Numbered from the stretch's first letter, positions 13,902-39,809 are shown. The stretch is 64,000 nt of DNA from Methanobacteriota archaeon (GCA_020347565.1 CP070732.1:243582-307581); one strand, 5' to 3'. A program made the numbers and translations. Notes: generated by a model from the letters alone, not told the origin.

Positions 13902-13906
13902 TGACC

Positions 13907-18232: not shown

Positions 18233-18240
18233 CGACGCCC

Positions 18241-19621: not shown

Positions 19622-20751
19622 CAGATCGCCCCCATCTCCCTAAGCTTGTGCCGCACCTCGCCAGGCGTGGGCGGCTCGCCGCCAACCTTCGAGAGGAACT
19701 CCACGCGGCTGCATCCCGCTTCGAGGACGACGCGCTTGATCTCCCAGTAGAGCTGTCCCAGGTTCATCTCGCACACGAGCATCTGATCGCAGCTGGCCGC
19801 GGCCTCGGCGATCGGCTCAACGGGCAGCGGCCAGATGGTCTTCAAGCGCAGGAGACCGATGCGGTCGTCCTTGGCGGCGACCTCGCGGCCGCCGAACGAC
19901 GCGGAACCGTACGAGACTATCATGGTCTTCGAGTCCGGCTCGATTACCTCCCATTTGTTTATGTCTCGCCTGTTCTTCGTGATCTTCTCGTTGAGACGCC
20001 TCACCAGCTCCTGGTGTATTCTCGGATCCTCGGGTTCGATGGCCGCCTTCCCAGAGTGCGTTATGCCGGTGACCATCGCCTTGTGCCCCTTGCCGAAGGT
20101 GGGGAACGGGGGCACGAGGTCGTCGGGCACGTCATACGCCTCGTCAGAGCGTCGCACGCCCTTCTCCTTCCTGTTGACGATCTTGACCTCCTTCGGGACG
20201 GTCAACAGCCCTCTCATGTGGCCTATCTCGGCATCGGAGAGGACGAACGTGGGTACGCGGTACTTCTCGGCGTAGTTGAACGCCTTGACCGTGAGGTCGA
20301 ACATCTCCTGGACGTTGGCGGGGGCGAAGGCTATGACCTGATAGTCTCCGTGGGAGCCGTACTTCGTCGCCATTATGTCCCCCTGCGAGGCGCGCGTCGG
20401 CTGCCCCGTCGACGGCCCTCCCCTCATCACGTTAACTACGACGACCGGCGTCTCCGTCATGGCCGCGTAGCCGATCGCCTCCTGCATGAGCGAGAATCCG
20501 GGCCCGGAGGTGGCCGTCATGGCCTTGGCCCCTCCCCAGGAGGCTCCGATCACCGCGGATATGCAGGCTATCTCGTCCTCCATCTGGAGGAACTCCCCGC
20601 CCGCCTGGGGCAGCTTCGCCGCGAGCCCCTCGGCTATCTCCGTCGATGGCGTTATGGGATACCCTGCAAAGAACTTCGCACCTGCCAGCATGGACGCCTC
20701 GACGCAGGCCTCGTTGCCCTGGAGGAAGTACTCACCCGGCTTTATCGACAT
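19621..20751 (-). CDS. 2-oxoacid:ferredoxin oxidoreductase alpha subunit
   Basis: GNEACVEASMLAGAKFFAGYPITPSTEI ... alpha-subunit core; 376 aa (KorA-like size). Confidence 0.85.
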   Translation of the reverse strand: MSIKPGEYFLQGNEACVEASMLAGAKFFAGYPITPSTEIAEGLAAKLPQAGGEFLQMEDEIACISAVIGASWGGAKAMTATSGPGFSLMQEAIGYAAMTETPVVVVNVMRGGPSTGQPTRASQGDIMATKYGSHGDYQVIAFAPANVQEMFDLTVKAFNYAEKYRVPTFVLSDAEIGHMRGLLTVPKEVKIVNRKEKGVRRSDEAYDVPDDLVPPFPTFGKGHKAMVTGITHSGKAAIEPEDPRIHQELVRRLNEKITKNRRDINKWEVIEPDSKTMIVSYGSASFGGREVAAKDDRIGLLRLKTIWPLPVEPIAEAAASCDQMLVCEMNLGQLYWEIKRVVLEAGCSRVEFLSKVGGEPPTPGEVRHKLREMGAI

Positions 20752-20992
20752 CTTCCCCCTCCTCCGCCTCTGGCTTCCACGATACGGCCTGGTCCGGGCA
20801 GCTCAGGATGCACAGCTCGCATATCAGCTTCTCCGTCCGGCCGTGGTTGAAACAGCTCTCGGGCGAGGCGACGACGGCCGCGAAGTACCCTCGCTCCGAT
20901 ATGTCGGCTCCCTTTGAGAAACACTTCTTGGGACACATATAGACGCAGATATTGCAGCCCTTGCAGTAGGCCAAATCGATATCGGGCCTCAT
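20732..20992 (-). CDS. 2-oxoacid:ferredoxin oxidoreductase delta subunit (2x[4Fe-4S] ferredoxin)
   Basis: CKGCNICVYMCP and CELCILSCP cluster motifs; 86 aa; overlaps the alpha gene. Confidence 0.8.
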   Translation of the reverse strand: MRPDIDLAYCKGCNICVYMCPKKCFSKGADISERGYFAAVVASPESCFNHGRTEKLICELCILSCPDQAVSWKPEAEEGEDVDKAG

Positions 20993-21019
20993 CAGTAACC
21001 TGTCGGTTCAATCGGATGG

Positions 21020-21050
21020 TTCATATTTGAACCTATTTAACGTAAAATAA
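21020..21050 (-). promoter_or_regulatory. promoter region of the 2-oxoacid oxidoreductase-acdB operon
   Basis: rc contains tttattttacg / ttaaatagg, 30-55 nt upstream of delta-subunit start 20992. Confidence 0.35.
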
Positions 21051-21203
21051 ATCGCATAGCACCTGTCTGGCCCGGCCTGGCCATCTCCGTCGGGGAACGG
21101 GACGAGATGGACCGACACGCCCGCCGTCGCACATCATGGCTCGACCTGGCCACCCACGCGAAACAATTAATAGGACCATTAGGATAGACCGGGACCGTAG
21201 ACG

Positions 21204-22115
21204 ATGAACGCGCTTCAGGAAGAGATACTCGACCTCAAGAGGCAGAAGGGCGCCGTCATTCTCGGACACAACTACCAGTGCAGGGAGGTCCAGGAGGTCT
21301 CCGACTTCCTGGGAGACTCGTACGGCCTCTCGGTCCAGGCAACGAAGGTCGAGGCCGATACGATCGTCTTCGCGGGGGTCGACTTCATGGCCGAGTCGGC
21401 GAAGATTCTCAACCCGCGGAAGACGGTCCTCCTGCCGAACCTGAAGTCCGCCTGTCCCATGGCGGCCATGGTCGACGCGGAAGCTTTGAGGGCGTTCAAG
21501 GAGGAGAATCCGGGCGTTCCCGTCGTTTCGTACGTGAACACCACCGCGTCCGTGAAGTGCGAGACGGACATCTGCTGCACATCGGCAAACGCGGTGAAGA
21601 TCGTCAAGTCGTTGCCCGATGAGAAGATTATCTTCGTGCCCGATTCGAATCTGGGGCTCTATGTTCAACGGTATGTGAAGGACAAGGAGATACTGCTCTG
21701 GCCTGGATACTGTCCCACGCACGTGAACATAACTGCCGCGTCTCTCAGGTCGCTCAAGGACGAGCACCCCGGAGCCGAGGTGCTCGTGCATCCAGAGTGC
21801 ACCCCCGAAGTCATAGACCTCGCCGACTTCGCATACTCCACAGAGGGCATAATCAGGCACGTGGTGTCGTCGTCCAAGAAGGAGTTCATAATCGGTACCG
21901 AAGCCAACATGAACCACAGACTCAGGAAGGAGGCGCCGGGCAAGACCTTCCACGCCGTGGAGGAGGCCATATGCCCGAGCATGAGGGAGATCACGCTGGA
22001 GGACGTACGTGACTCGCTCCTCAAGTCGCAGCACAGGATAGACCTTTCGGACGAGATAGTGTCGAAGGCAAGGGCGCCGCTCGAGAGGATGCTGGAGGCG
22101 GGCCGGCAGGACTGA
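21204..22115 (+). CDS. nadA: quinolinate synthase A
   Basis: ILGHNYQ, VDFMAES, CPTHVN motifs; 303 aa. Confidence 0.9.
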   Translation: MNALQEEILDLKRQKGAVILGHNYQCREVQEVSDFLGDSYGLSVQATKVEADTIVFAGVDFMAESAKILNPRKTVLLPNLKSACPMAAMVDAEALRAFKEENPGVPVVSYVNTTASVKCETDICCTSANAVKIVKSLPDEKIIFVPDSNLGLYVQRYVKDKEILLWPGYCPTHVNITAASLRSLKDEHPGAEVLVHPECTPEVIDLADFAYSTEGIIRHVVSSSKKEFIIGTEANMNHRLRKEAPGKTFHAVEEAICPSMREITLEDVRDSLLKSQHRIDLSDEIVSKARAPLERMLEAGRQD

Positions 22116-23054: not shown

Positions 23055-24335
23055 TCAGACCACTGTGAGATCCTTCCCGAAACGCGTGAGATGCTCGCTC
23101 CCTTCGAGGGTCACTAGGATATCGTCTTCGATCCTTATACCGAACTCTCCGGGGAAGTTGAGCGTGGGCTCGATGGTCATCACAATCCCCGGCTTAAGCG
23201 TCATCTCCGTGTCTTTGTACTCTGTCAGATGGGGCATCTCATGCGCCTCGAGGCCGAGACCGTGTCCGATTCCGAAGGGGAAGTGTTCGCCGTATCCGCT
23301 CTCATCAATGACCTTCCGGGCGGCATCATTGACCGCACCCGCCCTCACACCGTCCCGGACCGCTTCTATCGCCTTCAACTGCGCATCATGCACTACTTCG
23401 TGAACCCTCTTCTGCTTCTCGCTGGGCTCTCCGACGACCGTCGGTCGCGTGAGATCTGCGTGATAGCCGTTGTACGTCGCGGACAGGTCCATCAGGAACA
23501 TGTCCCCCTTCTTGACACGGTCCTCCGAAGGGGGATCCCACGTAGCCGTCTTGGCTCCGGTCTGCACGACGCAATATGATATGCTCTCAGCTCCTCTCGC
23601 CCTCATCGCCCTTTCGACTTCGATGGATATCTCTCTCTCAGTGGCGGACTCACGTATGAACTCCCTGCCCACCTTCACTCCATCCTCCACGATCCTCGCG
23701 GCCTTCCGCACGCACTCTATCTCCTCTTCCGACTTGACAAGCCTGGCGAGGCTCAACATATCGGAGGCGCTCCTGACCGTGACATCGGGAACTGCGGAGG
23801 TGAGCTGCTCGTAGGTCTTGAACGGCATGTGGTCCTCTGTGCCGATCGTGCCCTTCATGTTGGACAGCAGTTCCCCGAGAACGGTCTTTCTGTCCTCTGG
23901 ACTCGAATACGGTCGGATGTCCTCGAGCTTCGAGAGTTCTCTCGCATCCTCCTCGCCGATCCGCGGAACCACGAGCACGGGGTCGCCGTCAAGCGGGATC
24001 ACTGCGAAGGTTATGATATCCCAGGTGATCATGACGTCCCAAGCGTCGCCCGGGTAATCGTAGCGCAAACCTGTCAAGTACCGTTGGTTTGGTCCGGGCG
24101 ATACGAACAGAGCTTCGAACCCTTCCTGCTCCATCAGCGACTTGACTCTCCTGAGCCTGTCTATTGACACAGCTGGCACCTCGTGGTTCCGAATGGGAAT
24201 TTGGTATATAACTGCTGCGAGGGCGTGCGCCGACAAGGATGGCGCAGGGTCGCCGGATGAACGCGAATCTTGGAGCGAAAGATGCTCCGTTAGCTCTCCA
24301 GCGTTGAATGTTGCTCCCCGTTCCTCCTGTGCCAA
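23055..24335 (-). CDS. M24-family metallopeptidase (Xaa-Pro aminopeptidase/prolidase-like, creatinase N-domain + pita-bread fold)
   Basis: Metal ligands in the DLSATYNGYHAD..., HGLGLEAHE, GIVMTIEP...GIRIED context. True start probably downstream of the track start. Confidence 0.7.
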   Translation of the reverse strand: MAQEERGATFNAGELTEHLSLQDSRSSGDPAPSLSAHALAAVIYQIPIRNHEVPAVSIDRLRRVKSLMEQEGFEALFVSPGPNQRYLTGLRYDYPGDAWDVMITWDIITFAVIPLDGDPVLVVPRIGEEDARELSKLEDIRPYSSPEDRKTVLGELLSNMKGTIGTEDHMPFKTYEQLTSAVPDVTVRSASDMLSLARLVKSEEEIECVRKAARIVEDGVKVGREFIRESATEREISIEVERAMRARGAESISYCVVQTGAKTATWDPPSEDRVKKGDMFLMDLSATYNGYHADLTRPTVVGEPSEKQKRVHEVVHDAQLKAIEAVRDGVRAGAVNDAARKVIDESGYGEHFPFGIGHGLGLEAHEMPHLTEYKDTEMTLKPGIVMTIEPTLNFPGEFGIRIEDDILVTLEGSEHLTRFGKDLTVV

Positions 24336-24396
24336 CCCTCTGAGAGCGTTAGGTACATAGGCTAGCTATCCGTACAGGGCCATAAGGTGCAGCGCC

Positions 24397-25863
24397 TTGC
24401 AGGTAGAGGAGCCGGTCGGCAGGCACATCGAAATTCTCTCGAGAAGCGACTTGGATGATATCCACGGCGCCACGATGGAAGTCCTCCGACGATTAGGCGT
24501 CAAGGTGTTGGAGCCGAATGCACTGGAGCTGTTCGATGAGGCCGGAGCGGATGTCGACAGGAAGACGAAGGTCGTCAGAATCCCTGAAGGCCTGGTCAAG
24601 GAGACCGTTCGGAAGGCGCCTTCCGAGTTCAAGATGTATGGGAGGGATCCGAAGTACCAATTGGACTACAGCGGGAACAAAGTGCACTTCGGGGTCGCAG
24701 GCTGCGCGATACGAGTCAAGGATCTGGACGGAAGGATCAGGCCAGGAACCGTGGCAGACGTTGAGAGCATAGCGAGGGTTGCGGACTACCTCGAGAACAT
24801 ACATCACATACTGTTGACCGTCACTCCGTTCGACGTACCCGATGAGGTCTACCATTTGCACTGCATCAATGCGGACTGGAAGAACTCTGTGAAGACGACC
24901 GATGGATTCACTTGGACGGCCAGGAAGGCCCAGGAGACGGTCGATATGGCAGCTATCCTCAGAGGCAGCTACGATGAGGTCGTGAGGAGACCCCCGCTCC
25001 TGGGGTTCATGAATCCTGTGAGCCCCATGCAGCTCTCCAGTGAGCTGACGGAGGGTGCACTCGTGTATGCTAAATACAGGCAGCCGATGGTTGTCGCCCC
25101 GGAAGCGCTCGCAGGGGCAACAGCCCCCTCTACCCTGGCCGGCCTCCTCACTCAGCAGAACGCGGAGGTGCTCGCGGGCATCATGGTGACCCAACTGGCT
25201 AGCTCCGGAACGCCCGTGCTCTACGGTACTGCCTCCACCGTCATGGACATGAGGACGGGGACGGCAGCGATGGGAGGGCCCGAGGTCGGATTGGTCAATA
25301 TAGCTACCGGCCAGCTCGGAAGATACTACAGCCTGCCCAGAAGAGGTACTGGAGGCGTCACTGATTCGAAGCTGGTGGACGCGCAGGCCGGCGCCGAGAC
25401 AGCTCTGTCGATGTTGATGGCGGCGCTCTCCGGCATGAACTTCATCTATGAGGCATGCGGAGGACTCGATGGTACGCTCACATTCTCTTATGAGAAGCTG
25501 GTCGTAGACGATGAGATTGCCGGCATGGTTTCCAGGACGCTCAGAGGGATAGAGGTGAACGAGGAGACTCTGGCGGTTGACGAGATATGCAAGTACGGGT
25601 CTTCGAGCTACCTCGGGTCGCCTCATACCGGAAGGACATTCAGGACGGAGCATTACATGCCAACACTGTTCGACCGCAGACACTGGGAGGCCTGGCTGAA
25701 GGCCGGCGGTAGGGACATCTCCCTGGAGGCCAGGCGAAAAGCCAAATGGATCCTGAAGGAGCATCATGCGGAGCCCGTCGACGGAGCCATCCAAGCTGAG
25801 ATCGATGAATTCATCAGGAAGACGACGAGAGGCTGGGCGGACAGCGCTTCTACCGCTTCCTGA
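24397..25863 (+). CDS. MttB-superfamily (trimethylamine methyltransferase-like, COG5598) protein, non-pyrrolysine member, paralog 1
   Basis: Full-length 488-aa ORF with no internal TAG. N-terminal LSRSDLDDIHGATMEVL and core LAGATAPSTLAGLLTQQNAEVLAGI...GGPEVGL resemble the MttB/MtgB family. TTG start with AGGTG-like SD 8 nt upstream. Confidence 0.8.
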   Translation: MQVEEPVGRHIEILSRSDLDDIHGATMEVLRRLGVKVLEPNALELFDEAGADVDRKTKVVRIPEGLVKETVRKAPSEFKMYGRDPKYQLDYSGNKVHFGVAGCAIRVKDLDGRIRPGTVADVESIARVADYLENIHHILLTVTPFDVPDEVYHLHCINADWKNSVKTTDGFTWTARKAQETVDMAAILRGSYDEVVRRPPLLGFMNPVSPMQLSSELTEGALVYAKYRQPMVVAPEALAGATAPSTLAGLLTQQNAEVLAGIMVTQLASSGTPVLYGTASTVMDMRTGTAAMGGPEVGLVNIATGQLGRYYSLPRRGTGGVTDSKLVDAQAGAETALSMLMAALSGMNFIYEACGGLDGTLTFSYEKLVVDDEIAGMVSRTLRGIEVNEETLAVDEICKYGSSSYLGSPHTGRTFRTEHYMPTLFDRRHWEAWLKAGGRDISLEARRKAKWILKEHHAEPVDGAIQAEIDEFIRKTTRGWADSASTAS

Positions 25864-26803
25864 GCTTGGGATTGAAGATCTCGTCGAGCGCGTAACCAAT
25901 GAAAGTGAAACCCATTACCAGGAATACGATGCAGAGCCCCGGCATGAGCACCCATAGATAGAAGCCGTTGTACATTGCGTTATTATTCAGCGCATCCTCA
26001 AGCATGTTGCCCCACGTGACGTCTACCCTCGCGGAGGCTCCCAACCCGAGGAAGCTGAGGGCGCTTTCGGAAAGGATCGCCAGCGCTACCACGAGGATTG
26101 CATTCGCGAATATCAGCGGAAACACATTGGGGAATATGTGCTTTCTAATGATGTGGAATTCTCCTGCCCCGATGGATTTCGCCCTCTCGATGAAAGCCCT
26201 CTCCTTGACAGATAGAACCTGAGTTCGCACAATCCTCGCAGTGCCAGCCCAACCAGTTATGCCTACCACGATTATGATCTTGGTTACGCTGGGCCCTCCA
26301 GGAAGGACCGCCTCAAACACTATCATCAACACCAACCAAGGCAGCACCAGGAAGACATCGGTGACCCTCATCAAGGCCTCGTCCATCCATCCGCCCCAGA
26401 ATCCGCTCAGAAGGCCGACTATCGAGCCCACTACCATGGCGACTGCGGAGGCTAGGAGGCCTATCACGAGGGAGATTCTAGCTCCATATATCAACCTGGC
26501 AAGAATGTCATTTCCTCGTTGGTCCGTTCCCAACCAGTTATCCCATGATGGAGCGGTGCCGGATCCGCGAGAGGCCACATCATCATGCGGGCCATAGGGA
26601 TAGTCCCAGCCTCCGATCTCCGAGAAGACCCACATTATCTGCGCTGGAAACGCCGCCATCGCAACGAATACGAGGAGTATCGCGAGCCCGAGCATGCCCA
26701 TCCGGTTCCTTCTGAACACTCGTCCTGTCTCAGCAATCCTCTTGCGGAAGAGCCTCATCCTCTCTGCGAATGGTTCGGACACCGTGAGATCCGTCTCAAT
26801 CAC
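25850..26803 (-). CDS. ABC transporter permease, DppC/OppC family
   Basis: EAA-loop region SIGAGEFHIIRKHIFPNVFPLI; 6 TM helices. Confidence 0.85.
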   Translation of the reverse strand: MIETDLTVSEPFAERMRLFRKRIAETGRVFRRNRMGMLGLAILLVFVAMAAFPAQIMWVFSEIGGWDYPYGPHDDVASRGSGTAPSWDNWLGTDQRGNDILARLIYGARISLVIGLLASAVAMVVGSIVGLLSGFWGGWMDEALMRVTDVFLVLPWLVLMIVFEAVLPGGPSVTKIIIVVGITGWAGTARIVRTQVLSVKERAFIERAKSIGAGEFHIIRKHIFPNVFPLIFANAILVVALAILSESALSFLGLGASARVDVTWGNMLEDALNNNAMYNGFYLWVLMPGLCIVFLVMGFTFIGYALDEIFNPKLRKR

Positions 26804-26814
26804 CTTTCATCAAT

Positions 26815-27795
26815 TCAACTCAACTCCACACGAGGGTCCAAATACAACATCACAACGTCCGAGACGAAGTTGGCGATCAGCACAGCGACCGCTATCAAGA
26901 AGAACGCAGCCTGGAGCACTGGCCAATCCTCTTCAAAGACTGCATCTATCGTCGCCCATCCCACCCCAGGATATTCGAAAACGTATTCCACCATGAACGC
27001 CCCGCCAACGATGTACGCAATGGTCAGTGCAATCAGTATGAGCATCGGCAGCATAGCGTTCGGCACAGCATGATCCTTCAATACCGACCCTTCAGGCAGG
27101 CCTTTTGCTCTCGCAGTGGTTATGTAGTCCTCCGTCATCACATCGGACAGAGCGCCGCGCATCATGAGAGAGAATGTCGCAATGTACACGAGCACTAGAC
27201 AGGTCACGGGCATGACCAAGTGGGACAAGAGGTCCTTAACTGATGCAAGGGTGAACTCGAATTCTTCCCCGATCTCCAGCGCTCTGGAAGGTGGGAAGAT
27301 CTCCCACGTTACGGCAAACAGCATCACCATTATCATGGCAAGCCAGAAAGTGGGCATTGCATAGAAGAAGAGCGAGAATGCAAGAGACCCAGAGTCGAAC
27401 AAACTGCCTCGCTTCCATGCTGCGATAATCCCAATGAGCATGCCAATCACGATCATGAAGAATGAGGCAACGCCGACAAGGAGCAGAGTCCACGGTATGT
27501 ACTCAAAGATGAAATCCATCGCCGGCATCTTATATTGAAAGGACTCGCCGAAATCGAGAGTGAAGACACCCTTGATGTATGTGATGAACTGCTCGGTCAG
27601 AGGGTCGTCCAGGCCGTACCTTTCGATCAGCTTATCCTTGTACTCATCGGGGATCGCGGGGTCAGACGGAACCATGAACCGCATCGGATCCCCAGGCATC
27701 ATTCGAAAGAGTATGAAGTTGATGCATATCACTAGGAGAAACGTGACGAACAGGCTTATGAATCTCCTCAGTAGTATTCGCCTGAAGTTCCTCAT
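26815..27795 (-). CDS. ABC transporter permease, DppB/OppB family
   Basis: ARAKGLPEGSVLKDHAVPNAMLPMLILIAL... and C-terminal MLYLDPRVELS. Confidence 0.85.
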   Translation of the reverse strand: MRNFRRILLRRFISLFVTFLLVICINFILFRMMPGDPMRFMVPSDPAIPDEYKDKLIERYGLDDPLTEQFITYIKGVFTLDFGESFQYKMPAMDFIFEYIPWTLLLVGVASFFMIVIGMLIGIIAAWKRGSLFDSGSLAFSLFFYAMPTFWLAMIMVMLFAVTWEIFPPSRALEIGEEFEFTLASVKDLLSHLVMPVTCLVLVYIATFSLMMRGALSDVMTEDYITTARAKGLPEGSVLKDHAVPNAMLPMLILIALTIAYIVGGAFMVEYVFEYPGVGWATIDAVFEEDWPVLQAAFFLIAVAVLIANFVSDVVMLYLDPRVELS

Positions 27796-27885
27796 GCGTT
27801 GGCTCCACTCATCAAAGGCGTGTCTTAGTCTGCGACGGTGTCATCTCGCGGAAATGGTCGAAAGGAAGAGGTTTAAGGTGTTTGC

Positions 27886-30675
27886 TTACGTCTCAGGAGG
27901 AGGTTCCTCAGGAGGAGCTTCCTCAGGAGGTGCGCCCTCTATGGTCTCCGGCTCCGGGCCTTTTCTCCGCTTCAAGAGCAAAGCCGCAGCCGCTACAGCA
28001 GCAATGAGTGCCAGTATCCCGACAACGATCGCTATGGTGCCCAATCCTCCTCCGCCGTCCTCATCCTCTTCAACGGCGGTCAGGTGGATGGTCAAACTCG
28101 CGGTCTCATTTGAGACCACTGTGACGGTCTCTGTGTCGTTCGTTTCGTACCCCGTCTTGCTGACAACGACTTCGTAGGTGCCCTCATCAACAAGAGTGAT
28201 CTCGAATGAACCACTGTCGTCGGTCTTCTTCGCATACGCTGCCTCCTCGTCGCCGGGACGGTACAGTTCTACCAGAGCGCCCGCGATTGCGACGCTCGTG
28301 TCCACAGAGTCCAGAACATCTCCTGCAACAGAACCAGAGGTTACACTCAGTGTGAAATTCTGCCATGTAGTATTGCCCATTACGACAGTCACGCTGGCAC
28401 TCTCGTTCGAGTATCCTTCTGCGGTCGCATAGATCTCATAGGTTCCAGACTCGACGGTATGGTTGTAGAATCCTTCCTCATCGGAGGATTGCTGACTGGA
28501 GGCTTCTGAGACAATCACCAAAGCTCCCGCAATCGGCTCACCTTCGGTATCATTCACATATCCGATGATCCACCCAGCATCTACAGGCACATCGATGACG
28601 GTGACCGTTATCGAGTCCAGATTACCACTCAACCCTTCTGGATCCTTAACTTCCAGGGTGACGGTAGATTCACCAGTTTCGTTGAAGAAGTGCTTGATGT
28701 TCTGGCCGTACAAGGTCGTCGTATCAAGAAGCTCCATGATTGTCCAAGTCCAGTTCAGCTCTTCGTCAGGGGATTCCAGGTCGTCTGCAGAGCCGGAGAA
28801 TGTCGCCTCCGTCCCGACAAACACTGTCCTGTCGTCTCCATCCATGTCCACATTGTACGGTGCTGTGTTTCCTGTGCTACCGATCGGCGTGATTGCGAAA
28901 TAGTACCAAAACGAACTGGGGCTTATCCCGGTTAAGACTTCCATATCGGGGAAGTTCTCGTACTCGTCAGTCCGGTAGCCAATCAAGCCGGACGGATACA
29001 CAAGACAGATGTACGGGCAGTCCCGATACACGATTTGCTGCATCTCGTGGACTATCGCCTGTCGCTCGTACAGGTCCATCGCTTCCTGCTGGTCCCACCA
29101 CAGCTGGTCGTAATAAGGATTCGTGTAGAAGCAATCGGACCACGCGGTGGTGTCGCTATTGTCCACGGGTATCTCATCCGTGGTCAACACGGACAGGAAC
29201 CATGTCGGGTCGACGTCGGGCCACCAGCTCCAGATGAACATGTCGTACTCCATATTGGACATTAGGTCGTATAGCTTCCCCTCAGACTCGTCGTATAGGT
29301 TGACTTTGACGCCAATATCTGCCCACCATATCTGCATCATCTCGGCAGTCTGTTCGTCATGGATGTTCGCGCGGATGTAGTAGAACTCGAATTCGAGGAG
29401 CGCGCCACTCGACTCGTTCTCCCGGACGGTCGGGCTGCTGATGTACCTGTATCCTGCATCCTCCAACATCTGGTTGGCTGCTGCGACGCAGTCCTCGTGT
29501 GAACCGTAGTCCCACCTCTCCTCCTCAGGCACATTGTAATGCCAGAAAGGCGTCGCAGGCGGTATGAGCCCATAGGCTGGTTGAGCCATGCCTTGGTGGA
29601 TTTCATTTGCGATGTACTCTATGTCCGTGGCCATCGTACACGCCTGCCTGACCGTCAGGTTCGTGGTCTCGTAATTCGTTGAAGCGGTGGGGAAGTTGCG
29701 TTCTCCACCAGTTTCCGACAACCTCCATTCTTTGGGCGCACAATTGAATCCGAATTCCTCAAGGATGAGTGTGGCGGGTGTCTGCCCATCAATGTCTGGG
29801 TTCGCGATGACGGTCTCCCATACGGACGGTGGTACGCCGTCGACCACATCGATATCTCCTGTCTCGAGAGCGGTAATCAGCGCATTGTCGCTCTTGTATA
29901 TGACGAAGATCAGTTTGTCGATATTCACCGAGTCGACTTCGATTCCTGGAAGGCGGTGGTACGGTTTCTGAGCGAGAAGATGGATTTCTCCCTCCGCCAT
30001 TCTGTATTCTTCCAGAATGAACGGACCAGAGCCGACGGGGCCATCTGGGAAGTAATCCGTTTCAAACATATCCACCGTATCGATTACGCCATCATCCCTC
30101 ACCTTACTCCAGAGGTGCTCCGGGAGGATCGGGACTATCAAGGATAGCATATTGGCCTTCGGTCTCAACAGGTCTATCTGAACAGTGTAGTTGTCAAGTG
30201 CGGTGACTTCGTCGAAGCCTTCTAGATAGCCAGCCAGAAGTGCGCATTCCTGTGGATAATCCATTATCATCTTGAACGTGAACTCAACGTCATGAGCCGT
30301 TACGGGAAGTCCGTCGTGCCAGTACGAGTCCTCAACGAGATGGTAGGTCCAAGTCAAGTTGCCGTTGCTGACTTCATGCGACGCTGCAAGTTGCGGATAC
30401 GGTTCCATCATCGGGCCAACGGCATAGAGGAACTCATACGTCATGTGCGCGACAGACCATGATGTGCCAGCCATCATATCGAACGGGTTGAAGGTGTCTG
30501 GGTCTTCCTTCACCCCTATTCTGTACTCATAATACGTTTGAACGGCTCCGACCGACGGAGCTGTCACAGCGAGCGTTGCCAGCGCCGTGAGCAGCAAGCA
30601 CACAACAATCGCCAAGGACACGAAGTAGTGCAGTCTGCATTTGTCAAACAAGCTCGAGTAATCCATCTCATTCAT
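27886..30675 (-). CDS. ABC transporter substrate-binding protein, family 5 (peptide/opine/nickel type), with ~350-aa C-terminal Ig-like/PKD + carboxypeptidase-regulatory-like extension and C-terminal TM anchor
   Basis: N-terminal signal/TM; ~560-aa SBP_bac_5-like core; beta-rich repeats (VTVIDVP..., YEIYATAEGY..., YEVVVSKTGY...); C-terminal hydrophobic anchor followed by KRRKGPEPETIEGAPPEEAPPEEPPPET. Confidence 0.75.
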   Translation of the reverse strand: MNEMDYSSLFDKCRLHYFVSLAIVVCLLLTALATLAVTAPSVGAVQTYYEYRIGVKEDPDTFNPFDMMAGTSWSVAHMTYEFLYAVGPMMEPYPQLAASHEVSNGNLTWTYHLVEDSYWHDGLPVTAHDVEFTFKMIMDYPQECALLAGYLEGFDEVTALDNYTVQIDLLRPKANMLSLIVPILPEHLWSKVRDDGVIDTVDMFETDYFPDGPVGSGPFILEEYRMAEGEIHLLAQKPYHRLPGIEVDSVNIDKLIFVIYKSDNALITALETGDIDVVDGVPPSVWETVIANPDIDGQTPATLILEEFGFNCAPKEWRLSETGGERNFPTASTNYETTNLTVRQACTMATDIEYIANEIHQGMAQPAYGLIPPATPFWHYNVPEEERWDYGSHEDCVAAANQMLEDAGYRYISSPTVRENESSGALLEFEFYYIRANIHDEQTAEMMQIWWADIGVKVNLYDESEGKLYDLMSNMEYDMFIWSWWPDVDPTWFLSVLTTDEIPVDNSDTTAWSDCFYTNPYYDQLWWDQQEAMDLYERQAIVHEMQQIVYRDCPYICLVYPSGLIGYRTDEYENFPDMEVLTGISPSSFWYYFAITPIGSTGNTAPYNVDMDGDDRTVFVGTEATFSGSADDLESPDEELNWTWTIMELLDTTTLYGQNIKHFFNETGESTVTLEVKDPEGLSGNLDSITVTVIDVPVDAGWIIGYVNDTEGEPIAGALVIVSEASSQQSSDEEGFYNHTVESGTYEIYATAEGYSNESASVTVVMGNTTWQNFTLSVTSGSVAGDVLDSVDTSVAIAGALVELYRPGDEEAAYAKKTDDSGSFEITLVDEGTYEVVVSKTGYETNDTETVTVVSNETASLTIHLTAVEEDEDGGGGLGTIAIVVGILALIAAVAAAALLLKRRKGPEPETIEGAPPEEAPPEEPPPET

Positions 30676-30868
30676 GATCCCTCAACCCCCGATGCTACGA
30701 TTTGATAGCCCAAGAGAAGAAACAATGAATCGAAGCTATATTAATCGACTTATCGATGTGTGGCCTGCACATTGGATCCCCCCGATGCTGCTTTCACCTC
30801 GTAGCATTGCACAATGGATATCTGGCCAACCCATTATAAAGCTTCTTCTATCGCGAAGGGCAACAGCG

Positions 30869-30878
30869 ATATATAAGA
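30869..30878 (+). promoter_or_regulatory. TATA box for MttB paralog 2
   Basis: gatatataag, followed by GGGAGG SD and the TTG start at 30916. Confidence 0.45.
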
Positions 30879-30915
30879 TGTCTGACATGCAGGCTATTGA
30901 CGGGAGGCATCGAAC

Positions 30916-32373
30916 TTGGAAATCAAGGCGCCGAAGGGCGGTCAATTGGAACTCTTATCTCGCGACGACCTGGACAAGATTCACGGCGCCACAGTCGAAA
31001 TCCTTCAGAGATTAGGGATGAAGATCTGGGAGCCAACTGCCTTGAAGCTGTTCAAAGATGCTGGAGCCGACGTCGACGAGAAGACAATGATGGTCCGCAT
31101 CCCAGAGAACCTCCTCAAAGAGACTGTTCGGAAGGCTCCTCAGGAGTTCAAGCTCTATGGGAGGGATCCGGACTATATTCTCAACATGGCCGAAAACAAT
31201 GTCCACATCGGACCATCTGGTCTCGCCGTAAGAGTGCATGACCTCGACGGCAAGATCAGGCCTGGGAAGCTGAAGGACGTCGGAAACCTCGCGAGGCTCA
31301 TCGACGCTCTGGAGAACATCCATATGAATGTCATGAGCGTCACCCCGTCCGACGTCCCGGACGATCTGTATCACCTTCATGGAATCATGGAGGATTGGAG
31401 GAACTCAGTCAAGACGACTGATGGATACAATTGGACCGCAAGGAAGGCCCAAGAGACCATAGACATGGCGTCGATTCTCAGGGGAGGCACAGAGGAACTG
31501 ATGAAGAAGCCGTGCCTTCTTGGTTTCACGAATCCCGTCAGCCCTATGCAGCAATCCAAGGAGCTGATCGAGGGGGCGCTGGTCTACGCGAAGTACAAGC
31601 AGCCGATGATCTACGCTCCTGAAGCACTTGCGGGCGGCACCGCACCCGCGACCCTCGCAGGCCTGCTTGCACAGCAGAACGCTGAGGTGTTATCTGGAAT
31701 CATGATATCCGAGCTCGCGAACCCCGGAGCTCCCGTGTTCTACGGGACGGTCTCGGCGGCGCTGGACATGAAGACGGGAGCGACAGCCCTTGGGGGGCCT
31801 GAAGTCGGACTGCTGAATATCGCGACTGGACAGCTCGGAAGATACTACGGGCTCCCGCGAAGAGGCACGGGCGGCAACTCCGATTCAAAGGCATTGGACG
31901 CTCAGGCAGGGTTGGAGACGGCGACGAACATGCTCATGGCAGGACTCGCAGGGATGAATTTCATCTATGACGCCTGCGGCTCCCTCGAGGGCAGCATAAC
32001 GACGTCCTATGAGAAACTCGTGATTGACAACGAAATCGCCGGTATGGTCACGAGGATCCTTGGCGGCATAGAGGTCACGGAGGAAACGCTCGCGGTTGAC
32101 GAGATCTGCAGAGTCGGGCCGAATGCCAGCTTCCTCGGGACGTCGTTCACGGCGAAGCACTTCAGGAAGGAGCACTTCCTCCCAACGCTGCTTGACCGCA
32201 GGTCACTGGAATCGTGGCTGAAAGCCGGCTCGAAAGACATCACCGCGGTCGCGCGAGAGAAGGCAAAGCAGATACTGAAGGAGCACGAGCCTGTGCCCAT
32301 GGACAAAGGCGTCACAGCAGAGCTAGAAGAATACGTGAAGAAGGCGACAAAGACGAAGGCGACAAAGACATAG
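30916..32373 (+). CDS. MttB-superfamily (COG5598) protein, non-pyrrolysine, paralog 2 (~70% identical to paralog 1)
   Basis: 485 aa with no internal TAG. ELLSRDDLDKIHGATVEIL and LAGGTAPATLAGLLAQQNAEVLSGI...GGPEVGLLNIATGQLGRYYGLPRRGTGG are near-identical to paralog 1. In-frame stop lies 15 nt upstream; TTG start at 30916; GGGAGG SD ~9 nt upstream; TATA gatatataag at 30869-78. Confidence 0.8.
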   Translation: MEIKAPKGGQLELLSRDDLDKIHGATVEILQRLGMKIWEPTALKLFKDAGADVDEKTMMVRIPENLLKETVRKAPQEFKLYGRDPDYILNMAENNVHIGPSGLAVRVHDLDGKIRPGKLKDVGNLARLIDALENIHMNVMSVTPSDVPDDLYHLHGIMEDWRNSVKTTDGYNWTARKAQETIDMASILRGGTEELMKKPCLLGFTNPVSPMQQSKELIEGALVYAKYKQPMIYAPEALAGGTAPATLAGLLAQQNAEVLSGIMISELANPGAPVFYGTVSAALDMKTGATALGGPEVGLLNIATGQLGRYYGLPRRGTGGNSDSKALDAQAGLETATNMLMAGLAGMNFIYDACGSLEGSITTSYEKLVIDNEIAGMVTRILGGIEVTEETLAVDEICRVGPNASFLGTSFTAKHFRKEHFLPTLLDRRSLESWLKAGSKDITAVAREKAKQILKEHEPVPMDKGVTAELEEYVKKATKTKATKT

Positions 32374-32513
32374 GGACTCTGAAACGATTGCGCCAGCTGT
32401 CCCCTGAATCTGCAACCCGGGACTCGATCTGGAGCGCAGAGGCGGAGGGGGCCACAACACGACGAGGCTGGATTGAAGCCCTGTCGCAGACGATCCACGC
32501 GCGCAGTTTTGCT

Positions 32514-33569
32514 CTAGATGCTGAACCTCACGAACTGGTTCTCACAGGGCGATCCATGGGCTATCCAGAACTCCCTCTTCGAGGGCACACTGATCCACGA
32601 ATCCAGGGTGAGTCCCCGCTCCTTCGGACCCGGATCATCTCCTGGGTGATGGCAGATCGAGGCCGGATAATCCACATGGTCCCGCAAGAAGCCCATGCAT
32701 GTTTCCAGGTCTATCTTGCCTCGGTTCTCCCTCAACAGCCTGTTCATTCTGTTGTGGCGGATTATGCTGCAAGAGGTTACTCCAGTGTTCTGCGTCGTTC
32801 GGAACTTGTCCGACACAAAGTGGTTGGCGTGGCCTATGTACTCTCCGCTGTAGGAGATATCCAGATCGTTAGGTGTTGCTTCAACGTTGTACAATTCGGT
32901 CTCATTCGTTATGACGAAGTTGAAGTATCCTGCTCTGTCCGCTCTTCGAACGGCGTCCAGCGCCTTCCCCAAGGTCTTCTGCTTCAGAACTTCAGCCACT
33001 ATGAGGTAGGAAGGCACTCCAGCAGTCATTTCCTTCTGCGGCACAGTGTTCCAGTTGATGCTGATCCCGCTCGAATTCAATCCAGCACAGGCCAGCATGC
33101 CTGGGTTGGTGTAATCCAGGATGTCAGGACCGTTTTCCCTCCTGATCTTGAATAGCAGGCTGAGCTCCCCATCCCACCACTCTTTTTCAAGACCATCCCA
33201 TGTTTGCCCAGCATACGTCTCGCCTTTTTCTGTCGCATTGCCTGTCGCGGCAAATGCTGTGCAACCGGGACGGTCGAAATCGCTTCTCTCCTCGAGGGCG
33301 TTTATCATCACTATCTCTTCATAGGCCCGCTCCGATCCTTCCGCAATGCCTCTGAGCTCGTCAGCGATTTCCGGAGAGTATTCCCGGATGAAAGGCTCGT
33401 ACTTGCTAGCATGTCTCAGCAACTGGTCTTTGGTCTGTCTACCGGCGAACTCCTGGTAGAACTGCTCCTCTATCATCCGGGTGATAAGGCTCTTGCAGAT
33501 CTCGCCATAGCCGAAACCCCTGTCGTATGCGTTGCCGCTCAGATCCATTGTGAAAAGGCTCTTTGCCAT
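32514..33569 (-). CDS. C45-family Ntn amidohydrolase/acyltransferase (acyl-CoA:6-APA acyltransferase / choloylglycine-hydrolase-like fold)
   Basis: Predicted autoprocessing site ...DFDRPG|C103TAFAATG with catalytic Cys at position 103, as in isopenicillin-N acyltransferase; ~350 aa. Confidence 0.65.
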   Translation of the reverse strand: MAKSLFTMDLSGNAYDRGFGYGEICKSLITRMIEEQFYQEFAGRQTKDQLLRHASKYEPFIREYSPEIADELRGIAEGSERAYEEIVMINALEERSDFDRPGCTAFAATGNATEKGETYAGQTWDGLEKEWWDGELSLLFKIRRENGPDILDYTNPGMLACAGLNSSGISINWNTVPQKEMTAGVPSYLIVAEVLKQKTLGKALDAVRRADRAGYFNFVITNETELYNVEATPNDLDISYSGEYIGHANHFVSDKFRTTQNTGVTSCSIIRHNRMNRLLRENRGKIDLETCMGFLRDHVDYPASICHHPGDDPGPKERGLTLDSWISVPSKREFWIAHGSPCENQFVRFSI

Positions 33570-33738
33570 GATGATGCTCTCCCCTGGTTCCTGATTACCG
33601 CAACCACCATAAGCATTGCTGTGTCTTGATGTTCAGTGCGTTGCCGACCTATTCGTGTGAGCGCCGAATTCGCGTGCCTGAAGGGGAGCCAAGGGTTTAT
33701 CTCTGCCCTTTCCCTCCCAGGCGTCAGGAGGGCTACTC

Positions 33739-35190
33739 GTGAAGGGGATTCCGTGCAAACAGATGATCAAGATACTGACCGACGAACAGGTGGAGAAGGT
33801 TCACGAGGCCTCCCTCAAGATACTTGAGGGGACGGGCGTCAGGTTCGATAGCGCAGACGCGAGGCGCCGCCTGATGGACTCTGGCGGGATTGCGCACACG
33901 GACAGGAAGGACGTCATCACTTTCCCCAGAAGCGTGATTGAGGAGGCAATCGGCAAGGTCCCGCGCGAGGTCAGCTACTTCGCGAGGGACCCCGAATGGG
34001 ACATCAGGTACGACGGTGAACACACGTACCCGTACGCTGGAGGCGGCGACCCAAACGTCCTGGACATCGACACTGGGAAGGCGAGGCCCTCAACGTTTGC
34101 TGACGTCGAAGACGCCGCGAGACTCGGTGATGCGCTCGAGAACAACAACTCGGTTTCACATATGGTCATCGCCAACGATGTCCCTCCCTGGATGATAGAG
34201 CTCAGGACCATGGAGGCGGGGATGAAGAACTCGGCGAAGGCCTTGTCCCACCACGCCACACGTGCGGAGACCGTGGATTACATGGTCAAGATATGGTCTT
34301 GCGTTGCTGGCGGCGAGGAGGAGTTCAGGAAGAGGCCTCTGCTCAGCCTGGGCAGCTCCCCGAGCAGTCCGCTGACCTACGCCAGCCACGTGTGCGATGT
34401 CCTGATCAGGAGCGTGGAGCTAGGGGTTCCGTTCTCCGTCATTCCTTGCCCCGTCTCGGGCGGGACCGGCCCGGCGACGCTCGGAGGGTCCCTGGCGCTG
34501 CAGAACGCCGAGACGCTGGCCGGCTTGGTGCTGATGCATGCGGCCGCCCCGCCGCTCCCGACAGTGTATTGCGGCAGGGTCTGCTTCATGGACCCGAGGA
34601 GCGGACGGGACCTATGGGGAGTGCCAGAGGAGGGACTGGTATCGGCAGCCCTCGTCCAGCTCGGCAAGAGATACGATATGGTTTGTGACGCCTGCGGCAC
34701 GGCCTCCGACGTGACGAGATGGGACCTCCAGATCGGGTTCGAGTGCATGATGACTACGCTACTGCCAGTCATGGCCGGGGCCGAGAGCGTTTCCGGCATC
34801 GGCGGCGGATGGGAAGGCGCCTCAAGCCTCGAGATGATGGTCGTCGGCAACGAGGTATACGACGACGTCGCCAGGGTCATGAGGGGCATCGCCCTGGACG
34901 ACGACGTGCTCGGTTTGGATGTAATCGATGGGGTGGGGCACATGGGCACATACCTCACGCAGCCTCACACCGCGAAGTACCTGCGGAAGGGGGAGCTGAG
35001 GATCTCGTCGCTCTGGGACAAGAGGACTTCCGAGAGCGCCTCGAGGGAAGGGTCAAAGCCCTTGATCGAGACCGCGAGGGATGTTGCCAAAAGCGTATTG
35101 AAAGAGCATGAGCCGATGCCCTTGGACAGGGACGTCGAGCAGGAGATTGGCACGATACTGAAAGACGCGCAGAAGGCCCTCGCAAGATAG
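33739..35190 (+). CDS. MttB-superfamily (COG5598) protein, non-pyrrolysine, divergent paralog 3
   Basis: 483 aa with no internal TAG. ILTDEQVEKVHEASLKIL, PATLGGSLALQNAETLAGL; alignable to paralogs 1 and 2 over the full length but much more divergent. GTG start with AGGAGG SD 8 nt upstream; alternative ATG at 33763. Confidence 0.75.
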   Translation: MKGIPCKQMIKILTDEQVEKVHEASLKILEGTGVRFDSADARRRLMDSGGIAHTDRKDVITFPRSVIEEAIGKVPREVSYFARDPEWDIRYDGEHTYPYAGGGDPNVLDIDTGKARPSTFADVEDAARLGDALENNNSVSHMVIANDVPPWMIELRTMEAGMKNSAKALSHHATRAETVDYMVKIWSCVAGGEEEFRKRPLLSLGSSPSSPLTYASHVCDVLIRSVELGVPFSVIPCPVSGGTGPATLGGSLALQNAETLAGLVLMHAAAPPLPTVYCGRVCFMDPRSGRDLWGVPEEGLVSAALVQLGKRYDMVCDACGTASDVTRWDLQIGFECMMTTLLPVMAGAESVSGIGGGWEGASSLEMMVVGNEVYDDVARVMRGIALDDDVLGLDVIDGVGHMGTYLTQPHTAKYLRKGELRISSLWDKRTSESASREGSKPLIETARDVAKSVLKEHEPMPLDRDVEQEIGTILKDAQKALAR

Positions 35191-38399: not shown

Positions 38400-39809
38400 T
38401 CACTTCGTCTTGGGCTTCCCTCTGCGGCCGAGCGTCGCCTGCCTGTGCCCCTCATCGAAGAGGCACCTGACCGCCCTCGCCGCCCTCATGGCGGAAGGAT
38501 ACACGGGTATGTTCTTCACCCTCAGCTCCTGAACGACCTCGTCGACCTCGGGGCCGCCCACCCAGCACGCGACGATCGGTTTCTTGAGGTTCCTCTTCTC
38601 CTCCACCAGCTTGATGACGGCGCCGACGTACTCCCTGGGCCTCGCGATCCCCGCGTGGACGCAGGTCATGATCAGCGAATCTATGTTCGGGTCGCTCAGC
38701 ATTATGCTGCCGGTGACGTAGTACCTGTGAAACCTCGCGTCGCCCGTGACGTCGAGCGGGTTCCTTGCGCTGGTTATCGGCGGAAGGTGAGGTGTCAGCG
38801 CGTCCCTGGTCTTCTTGGTCAGCTCAGGAACCTTAAGGCCCAGCGACTCGCACCAGTCGGTCATCATTATGCCCGCGCCGCCGCCGTTCGAGATTATGCC
38901 CACGCGATTGCCGCGGGTGCATGGCTGGTACGCCAACGCCCTCGCGAAATCGAACAGCTCCCCGACATCGTACGCTCGCTGGATGTGCACCTGCCTGAAC
39001 GCGGAGTCGTATACGGCGTCCGAGCCGCTGAGCGAGCCGGTGTGGGTCGACGCGGCAGCGGAGCCAGCGGGCGTGCGTCCCGCCTTTATGGCGATGATCG
39101 GCTTACGGCACCTCCTCGCGGCGTCGAGGAACTTCTTCCCGTCCTTGATGCCTTCGATGTACATCGCGATGACCTTGGTCGCTTCGTCCTGGTCGAGGTA
39201 ATCTATCAGGTCCGCATCGTCGACGTCCGCCTTGTTGCCGACCGATATCACCCTCGACAGGCCAATGTGCTCGCCGTTGGCGTAGTATATCATGCCCACG
39301 CACAGCGCGCCGCTCTGGCTAACGAGGGCGACCTCGCCTGGCTTGGGCATTCCGAAGACGAACGCGGCGTCGAGGTTGTCCACGGGGTCCTTGTACCCAA
39401 GGGTGTTGGGCCCTATGACCCTGATGCCTCCGCGCTTGGCGATGTCGAGCACCTCCTTCTCGAGCTGCCTCCCCCGCTCGCCCGTCTCGCCGAAGCCCGA
39501 CGATATGATGATCGCTCCCTTCACCTTCTTCCTCGCGCACTCGGTCATCACCTTCGGCACGAACTCCGCGGGCACGACGATCACCGCGAGATCTATCTCT
39601 TCCTTCGTCGCCAGGACGCTGGGGAGCGACCTGAGCCCAAGGATCGTCGGAGTCTCTGGGTTGATCGGTATGACCTTGCCTTTGTAGCCGTTGACGAGAA
39701 TGTTCTGGAGTATCTCGAAGCCCAGCTTCGTCGGGCTCCTCGATGCCCCTATGACCGCTATCGATTTCGGAGAGAATATCGGCCTGAGCTCCTCGACCGT
39801 TCCCATCAC
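38400..39809 (-). CDS. acdA: acetyl-CoA synthetase (ADP-forming) alpha subunit (CoA-binding + succinyl-CoA-synthetase-like)
   Basis: IAVIGASRSPTKLG CoA-binding Rossmann, His-alpha motif GRTPAGSAAASTHTGSL; 469 aa. Confidence 0.85.
   Translation of the reverse strand: MMGTVEELRPIFSPKSIAVIGASRSPTKLGFEILQNILVNGYKGKVIPINPETPTILGLRSLPSVLATKEEIDLAVIVVPAEFVPKVMTECARKKVKGAIIISSGFGETGERGRQLEKEVLDIAKRGGIRVIGPNTLGYKDPVDNLDAAFVFGMPKPGEVALVSQSGALCVGMIYYANGEHIGLSRVISVGNKADVDDADLIDYLDQDEATKVIAMYIEGIKDGKKFLDAARRCRKPIIAIKAGRTPAGSAAASTHTGSLSGSDAVYDSAFRQVHIQRAYDVGELFDFARALAYQPCTRGNRVGIISNGGGAGIMMTDWCESLGLKVPELTKKTRDALTPHLPPITSARNPLDVTGDARFHRYYVTGSIMLSDPNIDSLIMTCVHAGIARPREYVGAVIKLVEEKRNLKKPIVACWVGGPEVDEVVQELRVKNIPVYPSAMRAARAVRCLFDEGHRQATLGRRGKPKTK

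Follow-up and report, generated by a model that had tools for sequence, protein, structure and literature searches.

The locus described here comprises eight genes at positions 23055-35190 of a 64-kb stretch of DNA from an uncultured Methanobacteriota archaeon of sediment (CP070732.1:243582-307581), and this whole stretch is referred to below as the window. Three of the genes encode non-pyrrolysine (non-Pyl) homologues of the MttB superfamily of methyltransferases, and they are interleaved with genes for a peptide-type ATP-binding cassette (ABC) importer, a C45-family N-terminal nucleophile (Ntn) hydrolase and a prolidase-like M24 peptidase (Table 1). Pfam and NCBIfam agree on all eight genes, recovering each at the coordinates that an earlier note on this DNA had given. 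The largest gap between genes inside the locus is 240 bp, and no further gene can therefore be hidden within it. The central finding is that these genes stay together, in shuffled order, across Thermoplasmata, and that part of the set recurs in a bacterial operon. Below, we describe the encoded proteins, the conservation of their linkage, and the pathway that they may form.

Table 1. Genes and putative regulatory features of the locus. Signatures give the residues aligned with Desulfitobacterium hafniense MtgB Y97 / R312 / Pyl site / H348 / F356.
Feature	Position	Strand	Evidence	Signature
M24B prolidase-like metallopeptidase (Creatinase_N + Peptidase_M24)	23055-24335	-	PF00557, 1.8e-57	
Conserved ~29-nt block AGCGTYAGGTACATAGRCTAGYTAWCCGT, ~25-50 nt upstream of MttB1	24345-24373	+	in 8 loci	
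MttB1, non-Pyl MttB-superfamily methyltransferase homologue	24397-25863	+	PF06253, 4.7e-128, 427.8 bits	G / R / (V,T,S,I) / E / T (n=10 sequences; Val in the window)
OppC/DppC-type ABC permease	25850-26803	-	PF00528 + OppC_N; six transmembrane-like segments	
OppB/DppB-type ABC permease	26815-27795	-	PF00528 + BPD_transp_1_N	
Family-5 solute-binding protein (SBP_bac_5), 929 aa	27886-30675	-	Pfam, 3.1e-68	
Divergent promoter region between binding-protein gene and MttB2	30832-30907		conserved boxes and ribosome-binding site	
TATA-like box CATTATAA	30832-30839			
Second TATA-like box, TATATAA	30870-30876			
Ribosome-binding site GGGAGG, ahead of MttB2	30902-30907			
MttB2, non-Pyl MttB homologue	30916-32373	+	PF06253, 4.9e-127, 424.4 bits	G / R / N / D / S (invariant, n=16 sequences)
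C45-family Ntn amidohydrolase/acyltransferase	32514-33569	-	NF040521, 209.3 bits (cutoff 85)	
MttB3, divergent non-Pyl MttB homologue	33739-35190	+	PF06253, 1.8e-74, 251 bits	G / D / (A,S) / other / other (n=7 sequences)

All three MttB open reading frames (ORFs) are uninterrupted, and their assignment to the non-Pyl part of the superfamily, proposed in the earlier note, holds over their full length. The PF06253 matches, for which the cutoff is 25 bits, span profile positions 30 to 488-496 of 500 in each protein. Each also aligns end to end with the solved structures of MtgB (9yce, 2qne) and MttB (7xcl), with E-values of ~1e-85 to 1e-92 for MttB1 and MttB2 and of 1e-54 to 1e-57 for MttB3. MttB2 is 65% identical to MttB1, MttB3 is 30-32% identical to either of them, and the three share 28-35% identity with MtgB. 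Sense codons occupy the position of the pyrrolysine codon, namely GTC (Val) in MttB1, AAC (Asn) in MttB2 and an alanine codon in MttB3; no in-frame UAG is present, and the MttB equivalog model TIGR02369 (cutoff 525 bits) is not reached, with scores of 469, 472 and 372 bits, respectively. The Rfam model PYLIS_3 matches MttB1 (25357-25456, 37.7 bits) and MttB2 (31876-31975, 41.9 bits, above the gathering score). We rejected these matches as recoding signals and ascribe them to coding-sequence similarity; because a sense codon stands at the UAG position, the model evidently also detects non-Pyl mttB coding sequence. Identical proteins in GenBank are UCE91809.1 for MttB1, UCE91813.1 for MttB2, UCE91815.1 for MttB3 and UCE91814.1 for the C45 hydrolase.

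The active sites of the three paralogues differ from one another and from that of the glycine betaine enzyme. In D. hafniense MtgB, glycine betaine is bound by Y97, R312, H348 and F356, and Arg312, which is thought to bind the substrate carboxylate, occurs in all characterised quaternary-amine members of the superfamily (PMC13080624). When these columns and the Pyl site are mapped by alignment, each paralogue displays a signature of its own that is kept across its own orthologues (Table 1), and the residue set of MtgB is found in none of the three. MttB1, MttB2 and MttB3 are therefore predicted to be three distinct specificity classes, none of them a glycine betaine enzyme. Arg312 is present in MttB1, MttB2 and all their orthologues, and its combination with an acidic residue at the site of MtgB His348 suggests that the substrate is a methylated amino acid, bearing a carboxylate as well as an amino group. 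MttB3 and its clade have an aspartate in place of the arginine, suggesting a substrate without an acidic group at that position. In a neighbour-joining tree, MttB3 forms a single clade with the MttBs that adjoin C45 genes in two metagenome loci (L033, L034) and in a Bipolaricaulota contig, together with an MttB that adjoins an S9 peptidase in the Thermoplasmata locus L001; all of these neighbours likewise have aspartate at the arginine position. A cluster search with MttB3 that covered 1.84 billion representatives returned one cluster at 57% identity and the remainder at 38% or less. Aspartate at position 312 appears in 38 of the 150 nearest clusters, often inside a 'PxDVYG' motif, which indicates that the Asp-type MttBs are a real, sizeable and uncharacterised subfamily.

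Two hydrolases accompany the MttB proteins. The C45 gene (JSV90_01275) is annotated as 'hypothetical' in GenBank, and its product, which has no signal peptide, scores above cutoff for the family (NF040521/PF03417). Gly102-Cys103 of this protein aligns with the Gly-Cys at residues 102-103 of the Penicillium chrysogenum acyltransferase 2x1d, presumably the self-cleavage site of that isopenicillin-N acyltransferase; the two proteins are distant relatives (phmmer E ~5e-22, 82 bits). Self-cleavage is accordingly predicted for the window protein as well, in line with the catalytic Cys103 that the earlier note had named. The second hydrolase has the Pyrococcus Xaa-Pro dipeptidases 1wy2 and 1pv9 as its best solved relatives (1e-57), and the motifs that hold its five metal ligands (D..D, GHG..HE, TIEP, RIED) are conserved relative to the P. 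horikoshii prolidase 1wy2. Both domains and all five metal-ligand residues expected of an M24B Xaa-Pro dipeptidase are thus in place. The score for the archaeal PepQ equivalog NF040821 is 215.7 bits against a cutoff of 630, and the protein appears to be an M24B enzyme related to, yet distinct from, archaeal PepQ. Here the M24 family proposed in the earlier note stands and the start of the ORF does not: the true start is probably the GTG at 24179, giving 374 aa, because homologues measure 371-381 aa and a TATA-like box lies ~30 nt upstream of that codon.

The importer consists of a family-5 binding protein and two BPD_transp_1 permeases, the composition that defines the Opp/Dpp type. The binding protein begins with an N-terminal signal or anchor segment (16-38), continues with the SBP domain, a PKD domain, two CarboxypepD_reg domains and a PEGA domain, and ends in a transmembrane anchor (878-900) followed by KRRK. 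This architecture is that of an archaeal surface-anchored protein, as far as can be predicted. Among solved structures, the binding protein has only remote relatives, which include peptide, nickel and opine binders (E ~1e-16).

The neighbourhood evidence covers a few dozen loci. One set was collected through MttB2 orthologues (84-93% identity), and the window proteins were then mapped onto the contigs that carry them. Besides the window, at least 10 Thermoplasmata contigs carry the gene set (L001, L002, L004-L009, L012 and L016), of which L008 derives from the isolate UBA10834. Nine of the 11 distinct versions contain a five-gene core of MttB1-OppC-OppB-SBP-MttB2, with M24 found in 8, MttB3 in 7 and C45 in 6; some of the absences are contig ends. 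Gene order and orientation differ among genomes, and the flanks are unrelated housekeeping genes that vary from one genome to the next. L004, for example, has the order MttB3-OppC-OppB-SBP / MttB2 / C45-MttB1 / M24, and L006 and L007 have SBP / MttB2-MttB3 / M24 / MttB1-C45 / second importer. Retention of the partners through such rearrangement argues for selection on the gene set. The earlier note had raised the prospect that the MttB genes would sit in unrelated contexts in close relatives; the opposite is found.

Several of the genes also form tightly packed, operonic pairs. MttB1 and C45 overlap by 4 bp in L004, L006 and L007, OppC and MttB3 overlap by 4 bp in L004, and MttB3 and C45 are spaced 8 bp apart in L005. 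Two divergent pairs are likewise kept, M24/MttB1 in 8 loci and SBP/MttB2 in 11. None of these Thermoplasmata clusters includes ATPase genes. Only in L001 is the cluster accompanied by a corrinoid gene, together with a further MttB; this close relative has five MttB copies in 21 kb.

L001 also contains, at 11663-21402 and on a single strand, another Dpp-type set without ATPases (OppB, OppC and a binding protein of 1288 aa), which shares an operon with genes for an Asp-type MttB and an S9 prolyl oligopeptidase. By its gene content, this set appears to be a parallel version of the same theme with another peptidase. In L004, a second and longer (509 aa) C45-family paralogue adjoins the MttB3 orthologue (703-2232), and C45 proteins of 475-510 aa also occur among the distant homologues. 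More distant MttB2 orthologues (64-74% identity) follow an APC amino-acid permease gene without a hydrolase, a pairing that fits an amino-acid-like substrate.

Using C45 rather than MttB as the starting point of the search yielded independent loci. C45 homologues that are 46-64% identical to the window protein always adjoin Dpp-type genes and mostly adjoin MttB genes as well. In the metagenome loci L029-L034, genes for C45 proteins at 61-64% identity have divergent MttB genes as neighbours, together with binding-protein and permease genes of the Dpp type. The most complete of these arrangements is L030, an archaeal locus with a GC content of 0.42, in which a corrinoid-MttB-MttB-RACo-MtrH operon is divergent from URO-D-C45 and a complete Dpp system, including OppD/F, adjoins the C45 and methyl-transfer genes. 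Elsewhere in the locus are another corrinoid gene, with an aminotransferase gene after it, and an amino-acid permease; a supposed 224-aa ORF of no recognised family proved to be a shadow of the second corrinoid gene on the opposite strand. L033, from peat, contains OppD/F, a C45 gene overlapping two MttB genes, and a protein with a MetE-like methyltransferase domain. Beyond the archaea, a Bipolaricaulota contig has the operon SBP-OppB-OppC-MttB-C45 without ATPases (C45 48% identical), and Natranaerobius thermophilus has an OppBCDF-SBP-amidohydrolase-C45 operon (C45 46% identical) with no MttB nearby. Because these deeper loci share C45 and the importer, the C45-importer pairing appears to be the older core, which MttB joined in several lineages.

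The spacers between the divergent genes contain conserved elements (Table 1). In 8 loci, the block AGCGTYAGGTACATAGRCTAGYTAWCCGT precedes the MttB1 orthologue. It is conserved more strongly than the surrounding spacer and has no match among Rfam families; it may serve as promoter, operator or leader element. Both TATA-like boxes and the Shine-Dalgarno sequence of the SBP/MttB2 spacer are conserved in 11 orthologous loci. A 10-mer common to two intergenic regions was judged to be a chance repeat, one copy lying inside the C45 coding start. The convergent MttB1 and OppC genes overlap by 14 bp at their 3' ends (25850-25863), and six related loci share this overlap (L001, L002, L005, L009, L016 and L012, where it measures 26 bp).

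The genes around the locus are archaeal in character. They include Trm1, a THEP1 NTPase, an archaeal-type dihydroneopterin aldolase, Hjc, a class V fructose-bisphosphatase, parts of an ADP-forming acetyl-CoA synthetase, a four-subunit 2-oxoacid:ferredoxin oxidoreductase, a thermosome and Nre. The nearest homologues of the window proteins come throughout from Thermoplasmata metagenome-assembled genomes (MAGs), the isolate UBA10834 being among the sources. Serine hydroxymethyltransferase (4468-5817) and the dihydroneopterin aldolase, an enzyme of pterin biosynthesis (17049-17555), indicate one-carbon (C1) carrier metabolism in the organism; neither gene is kept beside the cluster in the loci of relatives. 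The 2-oxoacid:ferredoxin oxidoreductase operon (17552-20751) closes with an ATP-grasp gene resembling the acetyl-CoA synthetase beta subunit, and the alpha gene of the ADP-forming enzyme lies separately downstream (38400-39809). These genes match the amino-acid-fermenting lifestyle proposed for these archaea.

Base composition sets most of the locus apart. The seven genes from M24 to C45 (23055-33569) have a GC content of 0.551 and a third-position GC of 0.65-0.73, against 0.614 and 0.8-0.9 in the window outside this block, whereas MttB3, with a third-position GC of 0.81, matches the host genome and appears to be native. The cluster of lower-GC relatives such as L005 has the same composition as its housekeeping neighbours. 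This pattern suggests that the seven-gene block was gained laterally, and fairly recently, next to a resident MttB3; a search for repeats flanking the low-GC block, as insertion scars, found none. Elsewhere in the window, a short gene of the phage-integrase family (216 aa, 58841-59491) lies in a low-GC stretch (0.544 at 58-60 kb), preceded by 1.15 kb without a called gene, and a tRNA-Ser gene is found at 50041-50129. The integrase-family gene may be what is left of an integrated element that has no connection with the locus.

The eight genes of the locus are linked across genomes and have intact catalytic motifs. On this basis, we think it fairly probable that the locus is a catabolic module for the uptake, amide cleavage and corrinoid-dependent demethylation of an N-methylated, peptide-like compound. 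From the gene content and from related loci we infer the kind of substrate, an order of steps in which hydrolysis precedes demethylation, and the identity of the partners encoded in trans. The family-5 binding protein would capture the compound at the cell surface. It would enter the cell through the OppB/OppC-type permeases, with OppD/F-type ATPases encoded elsewhere supplying the energy. Once it is in the cytoplasm, its amide bonds would be cut by C45, a self-activating Ntn hydrolase, and by the prolidase-like M24 enzyme. Each MttB paralogue would then move an N-methyl group from a different methylated species, or methylation state, to the Co(I) form of a corrinoid protein encoded elsewhere. 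A second methyltransferase of the MtrH or URO-D type (compare L030) would hand the methyl group to a pterin carrier, a RACo-type activase would keep the corrinoid reduced, and the demethylated, amino-acid-like product would enter the amino-acid fermentation typical of these archaea.

A narrower version of this proposal concerns the substrate. N-methylated peptides or pseudopeptides, imported by the Dpp-type system, unblocked by C45 and proline-specific peptidases and demethylated by three specialised MttB clades, one of which has its charge reversed (Asp) where the others bind the carboxylate, may constitute a new class of MttB substrates; we put this forward tentatively and hold it to be rather doubtful. 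Candidates within such a class are protease-resistant, N-terminally trimethylated X-Pro peptides and fragments bearing trimethyl-lysine. The recurrence of proline-directed peptidases, M24 here and S9 in L001, invites the speculation that the substrates contain proline.

A number of observations weigh against the catabolic module. No gene for a corrinoid protein, MtrH, RACo, URO-D or a second methyltransferase occurs anywhere in the 64 kb, and the three components plus activase of a corrinoid-dependent system are not assembled there. By comparison, control loci with ordinary bacterial MttB (L019-L021) have a corrinoid gene directly 3' of MttB. Among the best 120 relatives of the L001 corrinoid protein (down to ~61% identity), none lies on the 1.97-Mb source contig or on a 1.42-Mb sister chromosome. 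Published surveys of this order report no second methyltransferase (PMC11264602). The importer, described in the earlier note as devoid of ATPase genes, is indeed so: oligo_HPY-type OppD/F ATPases are absent from the window, and its sole ABC ATPase (1654-2430) has no oligo_HPY domain. Nickel, opines and sugars are further ligands of family-5 binding proteins, and the best NCBIfam matches of the importer include nickel models, all below cutoff. C45 is absent from five of the 11 Thermoplasmata versions, some of which (L002 at least) are cut by a contig end, and M24 is linked within the Thermoplasmata clade only, being absent from deeper-branching versions. The Dpp components beside distant C45 genes are only 26-35% identical to those of the window, and the distant importers need not, therefore, carry the same ligand. 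Finally, position 312 varies widely across the MttB superfamily, which makes a chemistry read from that position alone a weak one.

Other observations temper these points. Both kinds of missing partner are encoded in related loci, with a corrinoid gene in L001, all methyl-transfer components in L030, and oligo_HPY ATPases in L030, L033 and L038. In Eubacterium limosum, the substrate-specific MttB genes, the gene for the corrinoid protein MtqC that they share, and MtqA/RamQ occupy separate clusters (PMC8604678); the missing corrinoid gene is less odd for that reason, since partners are encoded elsewhere in that organism too. The central inference of the earlier note, that MttB paralogues, importer and hydrolases make up one functional unit whose corrinoid protein and second methyltransferase are encoded elsewhere, gains strong support from comparison: shuffled synteny, the 4-bp overlaps, the Bipolaricaulota operon and L030 all speak for it. 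The interpretation as a whole is upheld in part, M24 lying outside the deeper core and C45 missing from five of 11 versions.

Among the alternatives, the most serious is that methylated amino acids or betaines, such as trimethyl-lysine or proline-betaine-like compounds, enter through the importer in free form and that the MttBs act on them directly, with C45 and M24 processing only downstream products or ordinary peptides taken up by the same system. The APC permease that accompanies distant MttB2 orthologues with no hydrolase would be expected under this explanation, as would the occurrence of the five-gene core without C45 in L001, L009, L012 and L016 and the retention by MttB1 and MttB2 of the carboxylate-binding arginine of characterised quaternary-amine enzymes (PMC13080624). 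We nevertheless regard direct use of free substrates as unlikely. MttB is translationally coupled to C45 in several lineages, bacteria included, an S9 peptidase takes the place of C45 in the parallel L001 operon, and some amide-cleaving enzyme stands beside the MttB-importer pair in every version.

It is also conceivable that these MttB homologues are not corrinoid-dependent methyltransferases, or act without a dedicated corrinoid protein, and perform other chemistry on imported peptides. Such a role would account for the lack of a corrinoid gene in the window and in most related clusters, for the lack of a close corrinoid orthologue on the two long contigs among the best 120 matches, and for the lack of any reported second methyltransferase in the order; the superfamily is, moreover, mostly uncharacterised and variable at substrate positions. 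The full-length similarity of MttB1-3 to MtgB and MttB makes it improbable, however, as do the L030 operons, in which the same C45-linked MttB clades appear with a corrinoid protein, RACo and MtrH. A corrinoid gene also adjoins the cluster in L001, and corrinoid genes are reported for some MAGs of the order.

A third possibility is that the binding protein and permeases form a nickel/cobalt or metallophore importer that supplies the metal of the corrinoid cofactor, the link to MttB lying in cofactor supply. Top NCBIfam matches of the importer do include the nickel systems Opp2B (241.6 bits), NikC and NikA, and the solved NikA is among the remote structural matches. All of these nickel scores are far below their cutoffs, though, and the oligopeptide models Opp4B/C/A score the same or higher; metal supply would also leave unexplained the coupled C45, the M24 and S9 peptidases and the APC permease of sister loci, and we consider it very improbable. 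Least credible of all is that abundant MttB paralogues and a set of genes for peptide uptake and peptidases came to lie together by chance. Although the many MttB copies in these archaea (as in L001) raise the background of adjacency, rearrangement has not separated the partners in at least 10 contigs, stop and start codons overlap, and the same association appears in unrelated lineages (Bipolaricaulota, L030, L033).

Under the catabolic module that we favour, the coupling of MttB, C45 and importer genes, conserved across domains, provides a lead that can be tested: instead of free osmolytes, the methyl donors may be methylated amino acids that are set free from peptide-like conjugates. Non-Pyl MttB homologues are among the commonest 'methylotrophy' genes of anoxic sediments, and to our knowledge the known substrates of the superfamily number six, namely glycine betaine, proline betaine, carnitine, gamma-butyrobetaine, phosphocholine and trimethylamine. 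If the proposal is correct, protein and peptide degradation would be tied to C1 and methane-precursor cycling; if, in addition, N-methylated peptides are the substrates, protein-derived methyl groups would feed C1 metabolism in abundant sediment Thermoplasmata and Bipolaricaulota. Prokaryotic C45 hydrolases would also gain a first physiological context. The three MttB classes, the single binding protein and the cultured N. thermophilus, with its C45-importer core, offer entry points for experiments.

Compared with known quaternary-amine MttB systems, which use betaine-type transporters, the partners in the window are of another kind, namely a Dpp-type ABC importer, a C45 Ntn hydrolase and a prolidase. 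Among the closest characterised relatives is the MtgB/MtgC/MtgA system of D. hafniense, whose MtgB belongs to the same non-Pyl PF06253 family, is of similar size (~480 aa) and aligns here over its full length. Characterised MttB systems keep Arg312, as MttB1 and MttB2 do and the Asp-bearing MttB3 does not; unlike MtgB, none of the three has Y97, H348 or F356, and MttB1 and MttB2 have Glu and Asp, respectively, at position 348 (PMC13080624). The E. limosum proteins MtpB, MtcB, MtyB and MthB, which work with MtqC/MtqA/RamQ, are encoded apart from their partners, as in the window, and in this respect the earlier note had overdrawn the contrast with characterised systems (PMC8604678).

As regards its transporter, the locus shares with Opp/Dpp (PepT-family) importers the family-5 binding protein and the OppB- and OppC-like permeases. 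It differs from them in the lack of OppD/F genes, here and in the Thermoplasmata and Bipolaricaulota versions, and in its 929-aa, C-terminally anchored binding protein. The C45 protein shares PF03417/NF040521 and the aligned Gly-Cys with P. chrysogenum isopenicillin-N acyltransferase (2x1d) and, unlike it, is prokaryotic, cytoplasmic and encoded within importer/MttB operons. Another C45 Ntn hydrolase, Drosophila Tan, is a beta-alanyl-amine hydrolase; our literature search found no substrate for any prokaryotic member of the clade to which the window protein belongs.

Among archaea, clusters of the type mtrH-mttB-mttC-RACo have been described for the non-methanogenic Culexarchaeia and, as cited in that work, for Brockarchaeota (PMC9723716). 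L030 has this arrangement and shares its C45 and MttB clades with the window, whereas the window itself holds none of those partner genes; the descriptions consulted of Culexarchaeia-type clusters mention no adjoining C45 hydrolase or Dpp-type importer (PMC9723716). Closer to the host, non-Pyl MttB genes have been published for the Thermoplasmata orders UBA10834 (Ca. Gimiplasmatales) and RBG-16-68-12 (Zinke et al., 10.1101/2020.03.09.984617; PMC11264602). These papers report a few corrinoid genes and no second methyltransferase, and they either leave the role unclear or assume use of trimethylamine or glycine betaine (10.1101/2020.03.09.984617; PMC11264602). These reports concern the same family and lineage, and the text consulted does not treat gene context, paralogue classes or a link to peptidases and importers. 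Our literature search, whose coverage was incomplete, found no connection of MttB with C45, peptide importers, trimethyl-lysine or methylated peptides. What is new, as far as we have found, is thus not the occurrence of non-Pyl MttBs in these archaea, which has been published before, but their link to C45 hydrolases and Dpp-type importers.

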